Positions 12,612-20,130 of a stretch of DNA of 64,000 bases are shown one piece after another. The stretch spans positions 1 through 64,000 of the forward strand of contig JBDREC010000076.1 in NCBI GenBank assembly GCA_043820105.1. Direction: 5' to 3'. The position numbers and the translations under genes are program-made. Below the pieces are notes generated by a model. It searched no databases. It worked only from the letters and a program-made list of their open reading frames with translations, and was not told the DNA's origin. The first letter of the stretch is position 1. Every line of letters starts with the position of its first letter. This stretch comes from Pseudomonadota bacterium (lineage in GTDB: Bacteria; Bdellovibrionota_F; JAHFAK01; JBDREC01).

Positions 12612-12963
12612 GGGGGCGACATGGCTTCGACGGGATTGTTGAGGCTTAGGTTGCATGCCGAGTATTCTAATTCTTCTCGTAAAACAGATTAGAAACAAAA
12701 TATAATTGCAGATGAAAATCTAGCACTAGCAGCTTAGTACTGCTACGTCTTTTTAGGTGACGCCCGCTAACCTAAAAAGGCGCCATTTAGTGGGCTAGTC
12801 ATGCTTTCTTCAGCTCAGTAGAAAGTATGGTGAAAATAATCTGAGATAGCCTGCTTAAATTTCGTCTTTGGAAGTTATTCAGGTGAAAATAAAACAAGGA
12901 CTAAGCATGTAGATACCTGAGAGTAGGCTTTTTCGGACCCGGGTTCGATTCCCGGCGCCTCCA
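12612..12963 (+). ncRNA. ssrA: tmRNA
   Basis: 5' GGGGGCGAC..GGCTTCGAC; 3' T-arm CCCGGGTTCGATTCCCGG and acceptor CGCCTCCA; tag ORF (A)ADENLALAA* at 12708-12737; CCA not encoded. Confidence 0.96.
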
Positions 12964-13061
12964 TCAGTGCTGATTATTTTCTATGCGAAAATAATCTACG
13001 GCGGGAATAAATCCCGCCTGCACTATAAGTCAAGGGGAGCTAGCTCCCCTTAACAATCCCC
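12957..13061 (+). repeat. R element copy 1 (tmRNA 3' core plus ~105-nt structured repeat)
   Basis: GCCTCCATC...GTCAAGGGGAGCTAGCTCCCCTTAACAATCCCC. Confidence 0.9.
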
Positions 13062-13085
13062 ATTTTTAGAAATCTTATTTTATAA

Positions 13086-13640
13086 TTAAAACAACTTATC
13101 TAGTTCTTTTTTGCTTAGCTCAAATACTTTTGCTTTTGTACCCTCTTTAATAAATTCATATGAAATTATTTCTTCTCCTATACATCTAATACATAGCTTT
13201 TCTTTCACTCGAATAGCTCCAATATTCTGAATAGGTGTTTTAAAAATAATTTTCTTTAATTTAAATCTGTAAAAAAATATTTTGAATGCGATAGGATATG
13301 TATATGTACAAATTCCCTTTCTACGAAATTCCTTTTTCCAAATGTGGGCATGAAAAATTGCAGAATCATCCTCTTTAGAAATATGAATTAGGTGCACTCC
13401 AATGGGTTTATCCTTGTATTGGATAGTTAAGTAAGTACTTTTGGAATCTGTAGTATTGTCGCCTTTTTCACATATATCTTGAAGCACTTTCTTTGTTTCT
13501 TTTTCTAGGCGCATTTTTGATGAATCTACACCCAAAGATTCAACATATCCAGCTTCTGAGCGATACCAATAATCAAGAACATATTGGACATCTTCTTTAT
13601 TAAAATCCCTAATTTCAATATTTTTGATATTTATTTTCAT
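13086..13640 (-). CDS. GNAT family N-acetyltransferase (RimJ/RimL-like)
   Basis: HIWKKEFRRKGIC acetyl-CoA motif A; N..AIRV.EKL motif. Confidence 0.7.
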   Translation of the reverse strand: MKINIKNIEIRDFNKEDVQYVLDYWYRSEAGYVESLGVDSSKMRLEKETKKVLQDICEKGDNTTDSKSTYLTIQYKDKPIGVHLIHISKEDDSAIFHAHIWKKEFRRKGICTYTYPIAFKIFFYRFKLKKIIFKTPIQNIGAIRVKEKLCIRCIGEEIISYEFIKEGTKAKVFELSKKELDKLF

Positions 13641-13725
13641 TTTATAATTCTCTTAGATTTTTCCATACAACTATTTAAAATTATGTTTTATTTTTGTGCT
13701 AGAATATTCAAATCAATTATTAAAC

Positions 13726-14574
13726 TTACTCCTTTTCTAAATTTTCAAAATAATCAATAATCCCCCTAAATGTCAAATCAAAATCTAAATCATCCTTTAA
13801 TCCTGCAATAGCACTTTTCCAACCAAGCTTTAATAATTCTACGTCTATATCTTTTAGAATAGAACTTAGATTTTCAGGTAATATGTCATTCCTGGCTTTG
13901 AAAGTGGCAGCGATGGCTTGGTTTAGAACATTTAAATTACACTTTGGCAAAAAATAATATAGATCAAAAATATCTTTTGACCTTGAATTATCATAACTTC
14001 GTGCAAATAGGGCATGAATTTTTTCAGCACATGTTGATTCAATCGTGTAAACTAACCATGACAAGGATTCTTCGCCTAATATAGATTTTGTCTCTATTTT
14101 TTTAGGAGCAGGAACAACAATATCTCCTGTCCCAATATCAAAGTGAATATTTTTAGCAATTTTAATGTTCTTTGGAATTTCACCAATTCCACTTCTAAAA
14201 TAAAATCTAATTCCTCCGCATTCTCCTGAAGTTACTAGGTCAGATTCTTTCTCATATTTATACCACACTCCATCATCAATATCAGCTTCAATAACTTTAA
14301 TTATTAAGGATGATATATTTTTAATATTTAAATTGTTTATGATAGCATCTATATCAATTGTATATCTAGGAGAATTATAAACTCGAAGCCCAACATATCC
14401 ACCTTTAAAAATAATTTTCCCTGCTAACTTTCTGTTTTTTATTAGCCTTGCAACCATCCTTTCAAGCAAAAATGTCATTTCAATATTATGATATGGAACG
14501 TTTTGATTATTAGCAATATTTGAAAGCCTTGCTTTGACTGAAATTGCGATATTTTGTTTATTTACTTTCTTCAT
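13726..14574 (-). CDS. AbiEii-family nucleotidyltransferase toxin (type IV TA)
   Basis: IFKGG, RYTIDID, AEKIHAL, SRSKDIFD. Confidence 0.88.
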   Translation of the reverse strand: MKKVNKQNIAISVKARLSNIANNQNVPYHNIEMTFLLERMVARLIKNRKLAGKIIFKGGYVGLRVYNSPRYTIDIDAIINNLNIKNISSLIIKVIEADIDDGVWYKYEKESDLVTSGECGGIRFYFRSGIGEIPKNIKIAKNIHFDIGTGDIVVPAPKKIETKSILGEESLSWLVYTIESTCAEKIHALFARSYDNSRSKDIFDLYYFLPKCNLNVLNQAIAATFKARNDILPENLSSILKDIDVELLKLGWKSAIAGLKDDLDFDLTFRGIIDYFENLEKE

Positions 14575-15164
14575 AGATTAGTCTCAATTGATCCAATAAT
14601 TGTTTCCCAATATTTTTTAATAACATTTTCATAACCAAGTGCTTTTGCCATTTTCATGATTTTTGAAAGATTTGTTTTTTTCTCATTTATTGCTTTTAGA
14701 ATCGCTGAAATTGAAGTTCTTATACCTATCTTACTTGAATACCGTAGAGATTCTACAAGTGTTCTTTCAATATTTGTTATTTTGTAATATTTTTTATTTT
14801 CAACGCCTATCATAGATATTTTTTTAGCTCGTATAAGTCTATACTTTGAATCAGTAGTTTTTATATTATGAGGTACAGTTATCCATATCTGCGATGGAAC
14901 TTGTTCGATAAGCCCATGATAGAAAAGAGCTGTAAATCCAGCAATAATAGATTTATTACCAAATTTTTTGTATGAAGTGATAAAATCTCTTTCTTCTATA
15001 GATATATTATTACAACCTGGATGGATATAAAGCCCTCTTGAGAGCTTAATAATTTCCTCTTTTTGGTACATCCTGTAAAGAGTAGACCAAGATATTCCAA
15101 GCTTCTTGGCATCTTCTATACAAAAAACACCCAGATTTTTAAGTTTTTCTTTCTTGTTTTTCAT
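14571..15164 (-). CDS. AbiEi-family antitoxin / transcriptional regulator
   Basis: N-terminal wHTH with LSRGLY, TALFYHGL, ITNIERTLVE; overlaps the toxin start. Confidence 0.85.
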   Translation of the reverse strand: MKNKKEKLKNLGVFCIEDAKKLGISWSTLYRMYQKEEIIKLSRGLYIHPGCNNISIEERDFITSYKKFGNKSIIAGFTALFYHGLIEQVPSQIWITVPHNIKTTDSKYRLIRAKKISMIGVENKKYYKITNIERTLVESLRYSSKIGIRTSISAILKAINEKKTNLSKIMKMAKALGYENVIKKYWETIIGSIETNL

Positions 15165-18224: not shown

Positions 18225-18274
18225 AAATATAATTAAATCTAATAGAGATAATCTAAGATACTAGCCCATAATTC

Positions 18275-18331
18275 AAACCACCAAGCTCAACTCCATCTCC
18301 ACGGGTTCTACAATTGAAACTGCGCCTCCAT
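18275..18331 (+). repeat. Second-class junction, copy 1
   Basis: AAACCACCA...CCACGGGTTCTACAATT...GCGCCTCCAT; homologous to 20889-20945. Confidence 0.75.
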
Positions 18332-18447
18332 AAAATTAATTTCACTAAGTTGTATCGAACTAATATAGTTTGTAATATTAAGCGGTTATCTGTTGGCATA
18401 AAAAGTTCGATGATGAATTTTTAAAAAATTTTTCTGTATTACAAATT

Positions 18448-19786
18448 CTATTTCCTTATTTTCCAATGACCTGTTTTCTTACTACCAATAAATTCAATTT
18501 TATTTTCATTCTTTAATTGAGTAATAGCTCGTTCTATGGTTTTTTCATTAACTTTCAACTCTTTTGCTAATGATTTATTTGTGAAGGATTCTTTATTTTT
18601 TATTTTTTTATATATTATTTCCAATCTTTCTTTTTTACCGACATTTTTACCGACATTTTTACCGACATTTTCATCTATTATACTTCTTTTAAAAACAACT
18701 AAAAACCCTGTTTTTATTTCTTTGAAATCAACCTTAACATTCTGTTTTTTGCATTCTTCATATATTCTCTTTAATCCAGAACCCCATTTTTCTATTTCTC
18801 CTGATTTATAAAGAACTTCAGCTATTAAAGGATTTCTTAAAACAGAACGTTCATTGCCTTTGATAAAATCCTTGGGGCTTAATCCTTCAGGAAATTCACC
18901 AGGATTATAGATCTCTAACCTATCTTTAAATATTGCAATTTCATTTCCTTTGGGATTATTATAATCTCTATGACATAAAGAATTAACAAGTGCTTCTCTA
19001 ATTGCTCTTATTGGAAATTTCTGGAATCTCTTCTCGATTCAGTTTTCCAAACTGAACATTCCAATTTATGTGTTCTTTGATATAAGATTCAGATTGCTCA
19101 AGCAAATTAAAAAGATTACCTTTAAGTTGTTTAATATCAATAAATGTAAGTTTATCAGCACCCGCAAATACAGCTGCTTGAACATCCAAGAAATTGTCTT
19201 TTATAAATAATATTTCAGCAGCTTTTAAAATCTTCTTACCTTTTAAAAGATCTAATTTATTTAATGTGATATTTATATTTGTAAATTTAAAACTAATTCT
19301 TCCAGCATTATTAGCTTTTTCAATATAATTCTTAAGATCCTCTTTATTTATACTTTGAATACTTTTCTCAGATATTTTCCTATCCCAACTCAGCTCTTTT
19401 TGATTTTTCTTTAAAATAAGTTTTTCTAATTCTCTGGCACTTAATTGTCTATCCTCATCAGATACTCTCATATAAGCTCTACCATAAGCGAGATAGGGTA
19501 TTTCATTTCCAGAAAACTCAATCCTTATACAGTTTTTGCCTTCAATCACTTCTTTTCTAATTTCAGGATAAATCTTTGGTTCAATATGATCCGATATGGA
19601 CTTAGATATGTCTCTTAATGTTTTATCTGTTATTTCTTGACCTACAACAGTTCCATCATTTTTTATACCAAAATACAGTTCTCCCTTATTATGCTTATTC
19701 AATATTGAAACAATTGATATTATTCCTTCCTTTAATTCAGATGATGATTTTTTAAGCTCCAATTTTTCTGCTTCTTTTAATTTCAT
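18448..19786 (-). pseudogene. Schlafen/AlbA_2 + ATP-binding (RecG-C-like) + HTH protein, frameshifted near 19018
   Basis: LELKKS...GELYFGIKNDG; after one extra base the frame continues PIRAIREALVNSLCHRDY...RNPLIA...IEKWGSG...(NVGK)x3...GSKKTGHWK* ending at 18448. Confidence 0.8.
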
Positions 19787-20024
19787 ATTAACCTTTATCA
19801 ATCATTAAATTATTAAATAAAAGTATAACATAACAATTATTTTATCAATCTTTTCTGACGAATTAGATAATTGTAAAAAAACAAATATGTTAAAATAATA
19901 TTAGGGAGGAAAAATCTTTCCTCCCTGTTCCTCCCCTTTGAAAATCAAGCAGCAATCAACCTCTTAATATCATTGAACTCTACAAACTCATTTTGAAGGA
20001 GGAAAGTTCGATATGCGTGTACTT

Positions 20025-20130
20025 GCCTCCATCAGTTTGGATAATTTTCTGAACGAAAATCATCTACGGCAGAAGTAAATTCTGCCTAAACTATCAGTCA
20101 AGGGGAGAGCTTCTCCCCTTAACAATCCCC
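20025..20130 (+). repeat. R element copy 4
   Basis: GCCTCCATCAG...AAGGGGAGAGCTTCTCCCCTTAACAATCCCC. Confidence 0.9.

Follow-up and report, generated by a model that had tools for sequence, protein, structure and literature searches.

A covarying three-way-junction repeat as the probable left end of integrase-less cassettes stacked behind ssrA

Stacks of islands behind tRNA and transfer-messenger RNA (tmRNA) genes are a main route by which bacteria collect defence and toxin-antitoxin genes, and for units that carry no integrase the modes of recognition, of movement and of protection of the essential target gene are poorly understood. In Dehalococcoides, several islands are stacked directly downstream of a single ssrA, with a 20 bp repeat, an insertion point in the T-loop and conservation beyond the repeat; sixteen of these islands, which are many kb long, carry a large serine recombinase module (DsiB/DsiA), and the main text of that study reads units without an integration module as cis-mobilisable elements (CIMEs) gathered by accretion (PMC3146451). 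The tycheposons of Prochlorococcus are described, in the main text of a preprint, as islands beside a few tRNA genes and the tmRNA gene, where older elements are pushed inward and partial tRNAs and degenerate remnants are scattered (bioRxiv 10.1101/2020.12.28.424599). The stretch of DNA analysed here, 64,000 nucleotides of a contig (JBDREC010000076.1, here C76) from a Pseudomonadota bacterium and referred to as the window, holds a stack of small cassettes behind ssrA in which each unit begins with a ~106-nt repeat, R. Judging from the anatomy of its junctions, R is very probably a conserved left-end module of integrase-less cassettes, and its three-way-junction fold is under selection.

This array differs from the Dehalococcoides islands, as the main text of PMC3146451 presents them, in its 8-bp core at the end of the acceptor stem, in units of only 1.7–2.9 kb, in the lack of any recombinase within the array and in the ~100-nt folded module with compensatory changes that each unit also brings. 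The word 'hairpin' does not occur in that main text, where the passages on 'secondary structure' concern a tRNA in the integration module (PMC3146451). It is likewise absent from the main text of the tycheposon preprint, which defines its elements by their own tyrosine recombinases (bioRxiv 10.1101/2020.12.28.424599). CIMEs, in the account given there for Dehalococcoides, are like the present units in being att-flanked, tandem and without recombination genes, with a recombinase presumed to act in trans (PMC3146451). An array with no recombinase fits this subclass, which lacks one by definition. CIMEs are, however, decay products of a neighbouring integrative and conjugative or integrative and mobilisable element; here there is no parent element, and dedicated left-end and right-end modules surround unrelated cargo. 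A full-text literature search, within the text open to it, returned no description of a folded boundary module of islands at tRNA or tmRNA genes (tDNAs). Stacked tDNA islands are known, but a folded three-way-junction boundary module with compensatory changes appears, in the literature so covered, not to have been described before. R is a discrete object of ~100 nt, set 1–2 nt from the core and under two types of constraint, one on shape and one on sequence. Its covariance model, together with the core and right-end motifs, offers a means of annotating such arrays in metagenome-assembled genomes, in which they can easily pass for small-protein families or novel RNAs.

The assembly that holds the window consists of 113 contigs (3.8 Mb), cited below by C numbers. 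Its ssrA encodes the tag peptide ADENLALAA and does not encode CCA, and the final 7 nt of the gene, GCCTCCA, are the first bases of repeat copy 1. The four copies of R start at 12957, 15453, 17173 and 20025, as originally predicted from the letters of the window, all on the plus strand and at spacings of 2496, 1720 and 2852 nt. Every copy opens with the core GCCTCCAT, which equals the end of the ssrA sequence. The motif GCCTCCATC heads each copy (an additional match at 692 is unrelated), and CTCCCCTTAACAATCCCC has four exact matches in the window, all on the plus strand, where 0.02 are expected from 100 shuffles. The pattern of the last hairpin (hairpin C) is found in the assembly at just the four window sites. 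The gene and the repeat copies, with the parts of the first copy, are as follows.

12612–12963 (ARAGORN) or to 12966 (Rfam), plus strand: ssrA, the tmRNA gene (RF00023, 211.8 bits)
12965–13062, plus strand: R1, with its outer stem at 12966–12970/13020–13024
12972–12981/12987–12996, plus strand: hairpin A of R1, followed by the TAC linker at 12997–12999
13000–13006/13012–13018, plus strand: hairpin B of R1
13032–13039/13044–13051, plus strand: hairpin C of R1, with an extension at 13029–13030/13053–13054
13052–13061, plus strand: tail AACAATCCCC of R1
15461–15558, plus strand: R2 (model and fold)
17181–17278, plus strand: R3 (model and fold)
20033–20131, plus strand: R4 (model and fold)

A covariance model built from the four window copies scores them at 127.9, 126.1, 123 and 117 bits (R1 to R4) and finds a fifth full copy, R5, at C6:857-961 with 95.4 bits. 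R5 lies 2–3 nt past the 3' end of tRNA-Ser(GGA), has a fold z-score of -7.0 and shows new compensated stems (AATGATCTTC/GAAGATCATT and GGGCAAA/TTTGCCC). In addition, BLAST finds a 32-nt 3' fragment of R at C19:214-245, broken inside hairpin C. All five full copies in the 3.8 Mb stand directly behind the end, or a remnant of the end, of a tRNA-like gene (four at ssrA, one at tRNA-Ser), and R is tied to the 3' ends of such genes, although only 1 of 43 tRNA genes carries it. The originally proposed link to ssrA is thus borne out, and a dispersed repeat of the repetitive extragenic palindrome or bacterial interspersed mosaic element type is ruled out by the count of five full copies and one fragment, with all the full ones at tDNA ends.

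The five copies share one shape. Hairpin A (10 bp) and hairpin B (7 bp, loop of 5 nt), joined by an invariant TAC, lie within an outer stem, after which come the GC-rich hairpin C and the tail AACAATCCCC. The outer stem varies as AGTGC/GCACT, AGCAA/TTGCT and AGTTT/AAACT, and hairpin B as GGCGGGA/TCCCGCC, GGGTGAA/TTCACCC, GGGCGAA/TTCGCCC and GGCAGAA/TTCTGCC. These variants are as first quoted, and the TAC linker, the last hairpin and the tail are indeed invariant in the four window copies; hairpin A, which had been described as conserved, covaries too, with three covarying pairs among four copies and four among five. The fold z-scores of the four window copies lie between -5.2 and -6.3 on the plus strand, and 0 of 200 shuffles equal them. 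On that strand 96.9% of 128 cells are paired and 9 of 32 pairs have changed on both sides, while controls with the partners slid by 1–3 columns give at most one such pair; 0 of 500 shuffles match the percentage paired or the covariation score and 3 of 500 match the pair count. Read on the minus strand with all five copies, 99.4% of 164 cells are paired and 11 of 33 pairs (22 cells) have changed on both sides. Here the slid controls reach at most 3, and 0 of 500 shuffles match the copies in percentage paired, in pair count or in covariation score, while the count of further pair types is matched by 29 of 500. The fold of R is under selection, and selection on a three-way junction, as the original prediction held and as the slid and shuffle controls support, is the simplest reading.

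The two parts of R are conserved in different ways. In the stems of the three-way junction 24 of 44 columns vary with pairing kept, to the extent that R1 and R2 share just 25 of the 44 stem positions, and 3 of 9 linker columns vary; the junction is therefore constrained by shape. None of the 22 stem columns of hairpin C varies, so that this hairpin is constrained by sequence. Its loop differs both in sequence and in length (3–5 nt), which suggests that what is recognised is the hairpin itself and not a double-stranded site for a dimer. Overall identity is 94% between R2 and R3 and 82% between R1 and R4, and the 3' parts of R1 and R2 are nearly identical (44–45 nt at about 98%). R is far better conserved than the cargo, where identity is 29% between the two AbiEii proteins and no significant similarity is seen between the two GNAT proteins. 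It is scarcely credible that these arms stay complementary by mutation bias alone, through template switching at a quasi-palindrome and gene conversion and with no function at all. All copies do lie in one genome, and the likeness of the 3' parts of R1 and R2 fits conversion, but four helices have constant lengths, loop sizes and linkers even with more than half of the junction stem columns variable, and R5, on another contig, retains the architecture. A small open reading frame (ORF) in R was also considered and rejected: the frame, TTG-started and on the minus strand, runs for 19 codons in R1 but meets a stop after 6 in R2.

What the original prediction missed is that, at the 3' end of a tDNA, the copies delimit cassettes that are stacked and lack an integrase. 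As in other tandem tDNA islands, the array starts at the 3' end of the tDNA, repeats that end directly and carries accessory cargo. The core, in which two further bases are joined to the 3' strand of the acceptor stem of tmRNA, and the right-end modules that lead into it are the following.

12957–12964, 15453–15460, 17173–17180 and 20025–20032, plus strand: core GCCTCCAT, the putative crossover region
15265–15452, plus strand: right-end module of cassette 1 (repeat families D2/D3, motif search, junction alignment)
16985–17172, plus strand: right-end module of cassette 2 (repeat family D2)
up to 22603: start of the module of cassette 4, with two AATTGTTCTCCAC-type repeats (22561, 22590), cut by an IS66 gene

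The right-end module of ~190 nt is common to cassettes 1 and 2, the truncated cassette 4 and a Fic cassette on C59. In cassette 1 it consists of direct AATTGTTCTCCAC repeats at 15265 and 15294, an inverted copy at 15421 and a degenerate remnant of the ssrA T-arm, and it runs into the core. Module, core and most of the next R together form a 296-nt repeat that is 88% identical between 15265–15560 and 16985–17280; by BLAST, the right end of cassette 1 alone matches that of cassette 2 at 85.8% over 197 nt. The right end of cassette 3 (about 19840–20024) is unlike the other modules, yet it too ends in the core. Across five aligned junctions (the ssrA end, three internal junctions and C59), the 8 nt of GCCTCCAT are the sole invariant part, and two junctions retain about 20/25 nt of the ssrA end. 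On C59 the module and the T-arm remnant reach GCCTCCAT, where homology ends and R is absent, which puts the break at the 8-nt core and assigns R to the element. The anatomy of the five junctions thus gives the order of a unit as core, R, cargo, right-end module, core, and most of the cargo is transcribed in the direction of ssrA. It follows directly from this alignment that R would be an element-borne left end, fused to ssrA on integration.

The overlaps used by tyrosine recombinases are 6–8 bp. The identical 8-bp core at each junction argues for conservative site-specific recombination and not for HUH-type transposition, and ends of the IS200/IS605 type are ruled out, since the same 8-nt core lies on both sides of every unit. 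A guide-RNA scaffold on the minus strand of R, for which the antisense ssrA end would be the guide, is also rejected: the ssrA remnant on C59 is attached to the right-end module, not to R. The gene next to this remnant, at C59:1976-3192, encodes a Fic/DOC and helix-turn-helix (HTH) protein and stands behind the right-end module and core without R, with an IS21-type istB and a partial istA on the other side (3483–4970); the unit is either the array's far end or a relocated cassette. A Y1 (HUH) transposase near the same junction was set aside as part of a separate 1.1-kb unit (C59:209-1296) with its own inverted ends. This ~1.1-kb unit occurs in several copies (C59:209-1296, C103:60970-61991 and others) and has inverted repeats of ~35 nt around a 330-aa Y1 protein with a weak match, below the curated cutoff, to the DnaA C-terminal HTH; there are 13 Y1_Tnp matches in the genome.

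Under the proposed mechanism, conservative site-specific recombination at the 8-bp GCCTCCAT would add unit after unit and so build up the stack. With each integration the incoming R would become the new 3' flank of ssrA, and the older R would be pushed downstream together with an 8–25-nt remnant of the ssrA end. The recombinase would have to be supplied in trans, since the array encodes none: PF00589, PF00239 and PF07508 have no match on C76, and 11, 1 and 1 matches respectively on other contigs. The genome's single large serine recombinase (C100:81-1757, minus strand, 558 aa) was examined as a candidate and dropped, as neither R nor the module lies beside it; an 8-nt GCGCCTCC match close to its stop was put down to chance. 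It lies 80 nt from a contig end, with ORFs of 313 and 192 aa upstream, and over the last ~60 residues its frame seems to run on into non-coding DNA. Contigs from four public groundwater-metagenome runs, with a depth of about 1–3 for the source organism, match short pieces of the array exactly and include one that joins the right-end module of cassette 1 to R2 with 0 differences. Other joints in these runs (12955>17707, 13176>20553 and others) have sides of 21–25 nt, probably derive from foreign tmRNA genes or repeats and were left unused. The cassettes would be mobile, to judge from their anatomy alone.

As for what R does at this boundary, it may be kept for a function as a folded nucleic acid that separates the strongly transcribed tDNA from convergent cargo. 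In four of the five copies, minus-strand cargo genes converge on the tDNA and end about 20–205 nt short of R. R could act as an insulator at the RNA level: the tmRNA precursor on one strand, and the cargo transcripts on the other, would meet a structured trailer or a stop. A protein would bind the invariant last hairpin through its sequence, and the fast-evolving three-way junction would be recognised by shape alone. Hairpins are frequent in the tRNA trailers of this genome (16 of 44 fall below the 5th percentile of random 45-mers), which counts for such a role. The insulator part is a tentative proposal with somewhat less than an even chance, and the explanation as a whole, boundary module and insulator together, is given a probability of about 0.6. 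Among the possible roles of R, insulator or trailer ranks as most likely, followed by a folded-DNA recombination signal. R is not called a plain terminator because of its conserved linkers and missing U-tracts. Canonical terminators, with a long T-run, stand behind about a dozen tRNA genes (read by eye).

Several observations weigh against the explanation as a whole. The copy set is small, with five copies from one genome of which R2 and R3 are near-duplicates. None of the 11, 1 and 1 recombinase matches adjoins R or the right-end module, and none can be linked to the core. No excision product, empty site or strain polymorphism is seen in the public-run contigs at their depth of about 1–3. No displaced 3' fragment of tRNA-Ser was found in the source genome, where a lone 17/21 match (C64:794) lies in coding sequence, so that R5 may be a native flank and no island end. 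For the insulator in particular, the R hairpins lack the long U-tract of the genome's canonical terminators, a terminator scan flags hairpin B of R2 and R3 alone, the conserved linker bases and fixed helix lengths exceed what a plain terminator needs, and no minus-strand gene reads into R3. The strand cues, finally, conflict: G.U/G.T pairs point to the minus strand, whereas a layout like that of an sRNA (a body, a GC hairpin and, in R1 and R2, a T-run) points to the plus strand.

The minus strand folds better in most respects. Three positions with A.C or C.A mismatches on the plus strand become G.U (G.T in DNA) on the minus strand; these are the pair extending hairpin C (five of five copies), the loop-closing pair of hairpin A (R2, R3) and an internal pair of hairpin A (R4). 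On this strand hairpin A has 10 bp and a 5-nt loop of the form G-N-N-N-A in all five copies. Its fold is the more stable one in every copy, by 4.7–6.8 kcal/mol with RNA parameters and by 1.7–2.8 kcal/mol with DNA parameters, and for R4 as RNA the junction is the minimum-energy fold on the minus strand alone. One G.U outside the scored helices favours the plus strand (R4, alignment columns 15/63). Hairpin C is followed by TTAACAAT on the plus strand, and its minus-strand form by TTATAG (R1), with no T-run. The pairs and the stabilities give a moderate but not decisive cue toward the minus strand, which counts against a purely tmRNA-sense trailer RNA.

Such a trailer, native to tRNA-like genes of the lineage, is an improbable account of R; RNA from the plus strand would direct 3' maturation, or else termination, for tmRNA and tRNA-Ser, and the internal copies would be former ssrA flanks displaced by successive integrations. 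It would explain why R starts 2–3 nt past the discriminator base of both ssrA and tRNA-Ser, and the lack of an encoded CCA in ssrA means that a trailer must be removed; R1 and R2 have a T-run past the tail, and six other tRNA genes have an A/T-rich hairpin directly behind them. However, the plus-strand mismatches just described become G.U on the other strand, the minimum-energy fold of R4 as plus-strand RNA is not the junction, the core on C59 continues into non-R DNA and 42 of the 43 tRNA genes do without R. The 3' flanks of ssrA in three relatives (two of the same order, one of the same class) show no comparable structure either (z-scores of -1.4, -1.2 and -0.2), so that R is not a conserved ssrA flank. 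The idea of a processing or termination element for tmRNA, part of the original prediction, is thus weakened by these relatives, by the copy at a tRNA gene and by the better pairing of the antisense strand in all five copies. The relatives do retain the target core CCTCCATC, and in one of them a RhuM-like ORF apparently starts about 85 nt past ssrA (sequence read by eye), which hints that the site collects similar cargo across the order.

In the source genome, a contig from an RNA-library run (groundwater metagenome) matches ssrA over 12612–12960 with 0 differences; cover stops at 12960, which reflects a gap in cover and is no sign of R being untranscribed. The A/T-rich hairpin (AAATTTT..AAAATTT) stands directly behind tRNA-Glu(ctc) on C10, tRNA-Met on C33, tRNA-Leu(gag) on C39, tRNA-Val(gac) on C42, tRNA-Ala(ggc) on C50 and tRNA-Ser(gct) on C24. 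At several of these six it is followed by 6–7-nt tandem repeats (CTTACCA, GTTCTA, GAGTATT), and it looks like a separate tRNA-trailer family. The tRNA-Ser(GGA) gene that carries R5 has an exact 42-nt copy of its 5' half at C7:3221-3262 (minus strand), which ends in the anticodon loop, continues into unrelated DNA and adjoins a HEPN/nucleotidyltransferase pair. This suggests either a second integration, at the anticodon loop of that tRNA, or a strain variant.

The better folding of the minus strand also bears on a role of R as DNA. Integron attC sites, including those of clusters without an integrase (CALIN arrays), separate cassettes by ~60–140 nt, conserve their fold more than their sequence around a short invariant box and often accompany toxin-antitoxin or defence cargo. 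Integrative mobile elements exploiting Xer (IMEX) at dif are tandem, lack a recombinase and use a host enzyme, and the attP of CTX phage is a folded single strand. By analogy, one strand of R, likely the minus strand, could extrude a branched hairpin beside the core whose shape is read by a recombinase or accessory protein; in a variant, it could serve as a priming or single-strand origin signal after single-stranded transfer of an excised cassette. The two taken jointly are unlikely, though a fair amount of the evidence fits. The base of the outer stem lies 1–2 nt from the core, the stems covary while one hairpin is invariant in sequence (attC shows a similar split between a stem conserved in shape and conserved boxes), and the minus strand is favoured with DNA parameters in all five copies. 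It is also G-rich at both loci and would be the lagging-strand template; the cassettes have no recombinase of their own, as with integron cassettes and IMEX; and the fragment at C19:214-245 breaks inside hairpin C.

Against this, the core is unpaired in every predicted fold, whereas the exchange site of attC and of CTX attP lies within a stem. The polarity of the attC boxes is not reproduced: RYYYAAC...GTTRRRY is reversed here to GTYAAGG...CCTTRAC, hairpin C reading GTCAAGG...CCTTAAC on the plus strand and GTTAAGG...CCTTGAC on the minus strand. R differs further from attC in being a three-way junction plus a second hairpin with the core outside the fold, and no IntI, Xer-linked or HUH enzyme is linked to the element. 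The GC skew is confounded by gene orientation and comes from two loci alone. Compared with integrons, there is no IntI and no tyrosine recombinase on C76 (neither IntI nor attI is required for CALINs), the cassettes are multi-gene units preceded by a common module in which there may be a promoter, and the array sits on a tDNA end. Unlike IMEX, the target is a tDNA and not dif, and no dif-like 28-bp motif is visible by eye in R, for which no dedicated search was run. Of the originally proposed attC-like or single-stranded DNA signal, the attC sequence tests fail while a looser folded-DNA role stays as a rival to the insulator. In its most far-reaching form, R and the right-end module would make up an integron-like platform for gene capture on tDNA 3' ends, with a trans recombinase that inserts and shuffles the cassettes, reading the hairpin by sequence and the junction by shape on one folded DNA strand beside the 8-bp core; this is a speculative and rather unlikely view. 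If a role as a recombination site were true, structure-specific recombination would extend beyond integrons, with a further class beside attC and CTX-phage attP.

Searches beyond the source genome find little that resembles R. Its covariance model has no match in any of 60 other genomes (two of the same order, one of the same class and the rest sharing the domain alone, the lineage being an isolated one), under stricter filters that may lose weak matches. The exact pattern of hairpin C occurs at one locus in 185,579 species genomes, at 74 in metagenome contigs and at 8 in viral contigs. The best model score at these 83 loci is 36.1 bits, compared with 95–128 for R's own copies, and none has the full architecture; ARAGORN, run on 30 of the 83, finds tRNAs in 3, none directly adjacent. 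Rfam 15 gives no family on R, at permissive thresholds too (the best matches have 22 bits, where the cutoff is 88, and 18.8 bits, where it is 58.6), and the matches at threshold in the window are to tmRNA and tRNA alone. A trans-acting small RNA of the cassette family, processed from the ssrA or cargo transcript and regulating cargo or helper functions, is very improbable in view of the missing Rfam match, the lack of an evident promoter or terminator at R2–R4 and the lack of a homologue outside the source genome in these searches, even though conserved junction bases with covarying stems are typical of functional RNAs and the strong ssrA promoter lies directly upstream of R1.

The outside matches to hairpin C are treated as chance hairpins, with two oddities excepted. 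The sole match in another species genome lies in a metagenome-assembled genome of Desulforhopalus sp. (JBLHNU010000016.1:1214-1239), inside the 3' end of an ORF of the large-serine-recombinase type (Zn_ribbon_recom) and 11 nt from an apparent tRNA 3' half on the opposite strand (seen by eye, with no ARAGORN call). It may be due to chance, or to a hairpin recurring at tDNA integration junctions. The other is on a tailed-phage contig present in both the viral and the metagenome sets, where AAGGGGAG-TTC-CTCCCCTTAACAATCCCC lies near the contig end (16-112, minus strand) with other hairpins before it. Seven tail bases beyond the pattern equal those of R, the model score is the 36.1 bits given above, and a weak match to a terminase large subunit lies farther along.

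The cassettes between R copies are 1.7–2.9 kb long and their cargo is unrelated from unit to unit. GC content is 0.28–0.30 across 14–22 kb, compared with 0.31–0.35 in the first 14 kb of the window. The genes and other features behind ssrA are listed below.

13086–13640, minus strand: cassette 1, GNAT-like acetyltransferase (Acetyltransf_3, 5.9e-5, below cutoff)
13726–14574, minus strand: cassette 1, AbiEii toxin (Pfam, E=3.5e-27)
14571–15164, minus strand: cassette 1, AbiEi antitoxin (AbiEi_4, 4.4e-5, 23.9 bits with a cutoff of 25; AbiEi_1, 1.1e-4, 22.9 bits with a cutoff of 22.2)
15612–16826, minus strand: cassette 2, RhuM-family protein (Virulence_RhuM, E=5.2e-98)
17379–18224, plus strand: cassette 3, metallo-beta-lactamase-fold protein (Pfam)
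18448–18624, minus strand: cassette 3, HTH-like ORF of 58 aa (ORF list)
18631–18675: cassette 3, 12-nt tandem repeat between the HTH-like ORF and the AlbA_2 gene
18998–19801, minus strand: cassette 3, Schlafen/AlbA_2 protein of 267 aa (Pfam)
20194–20769, minus strand: cassette 4, GNAT (Pfam)
20959–21870, minus strand: cassette 4, AbiEii (Pfam)
21870–22466, minus strand: cassette 4, AbiEi (Pfam)
22603–22932, minus strand: lone IS66 Orf2 gene (TnpB_IS66, Pfam, E=2.9e-32)
23079–23153, minus strand: tRNA-Phe (ARAGORN)

The AlbA_2 gene is probably broken or truncated and cassette 3 decaying, and the lone IS66 Orf2 gene is probably the remnant of an insertion sequence that truncates the array.

Two further features of the window lie outside the array. 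The cumulative GC skew has its minimum near 52 kb (about 50000–54000), where a 472-aa ORF is found at 52776–54194. This minimum may mark a replication origin, in which case transcription of ssrA would be head-on to replication. Upstream of ssrA there are three tandem small ORFs on the plus strand (11804–11962, 11988–12146 and 12274–12444, encoding 52, 52 and 56 aa) that share a loose motif, e.g. SLVDGQFESEDDY and APLVNGLFKGEAPY. A 169-nt contig from an RNA-library run spans 11797–11965, and a radical-SAM/SPASM gene is located at 5545–6654. The small ORFs could be secreted peptides or precursors resembling those of ribosomally synthesised and post-translationally modified peptides.

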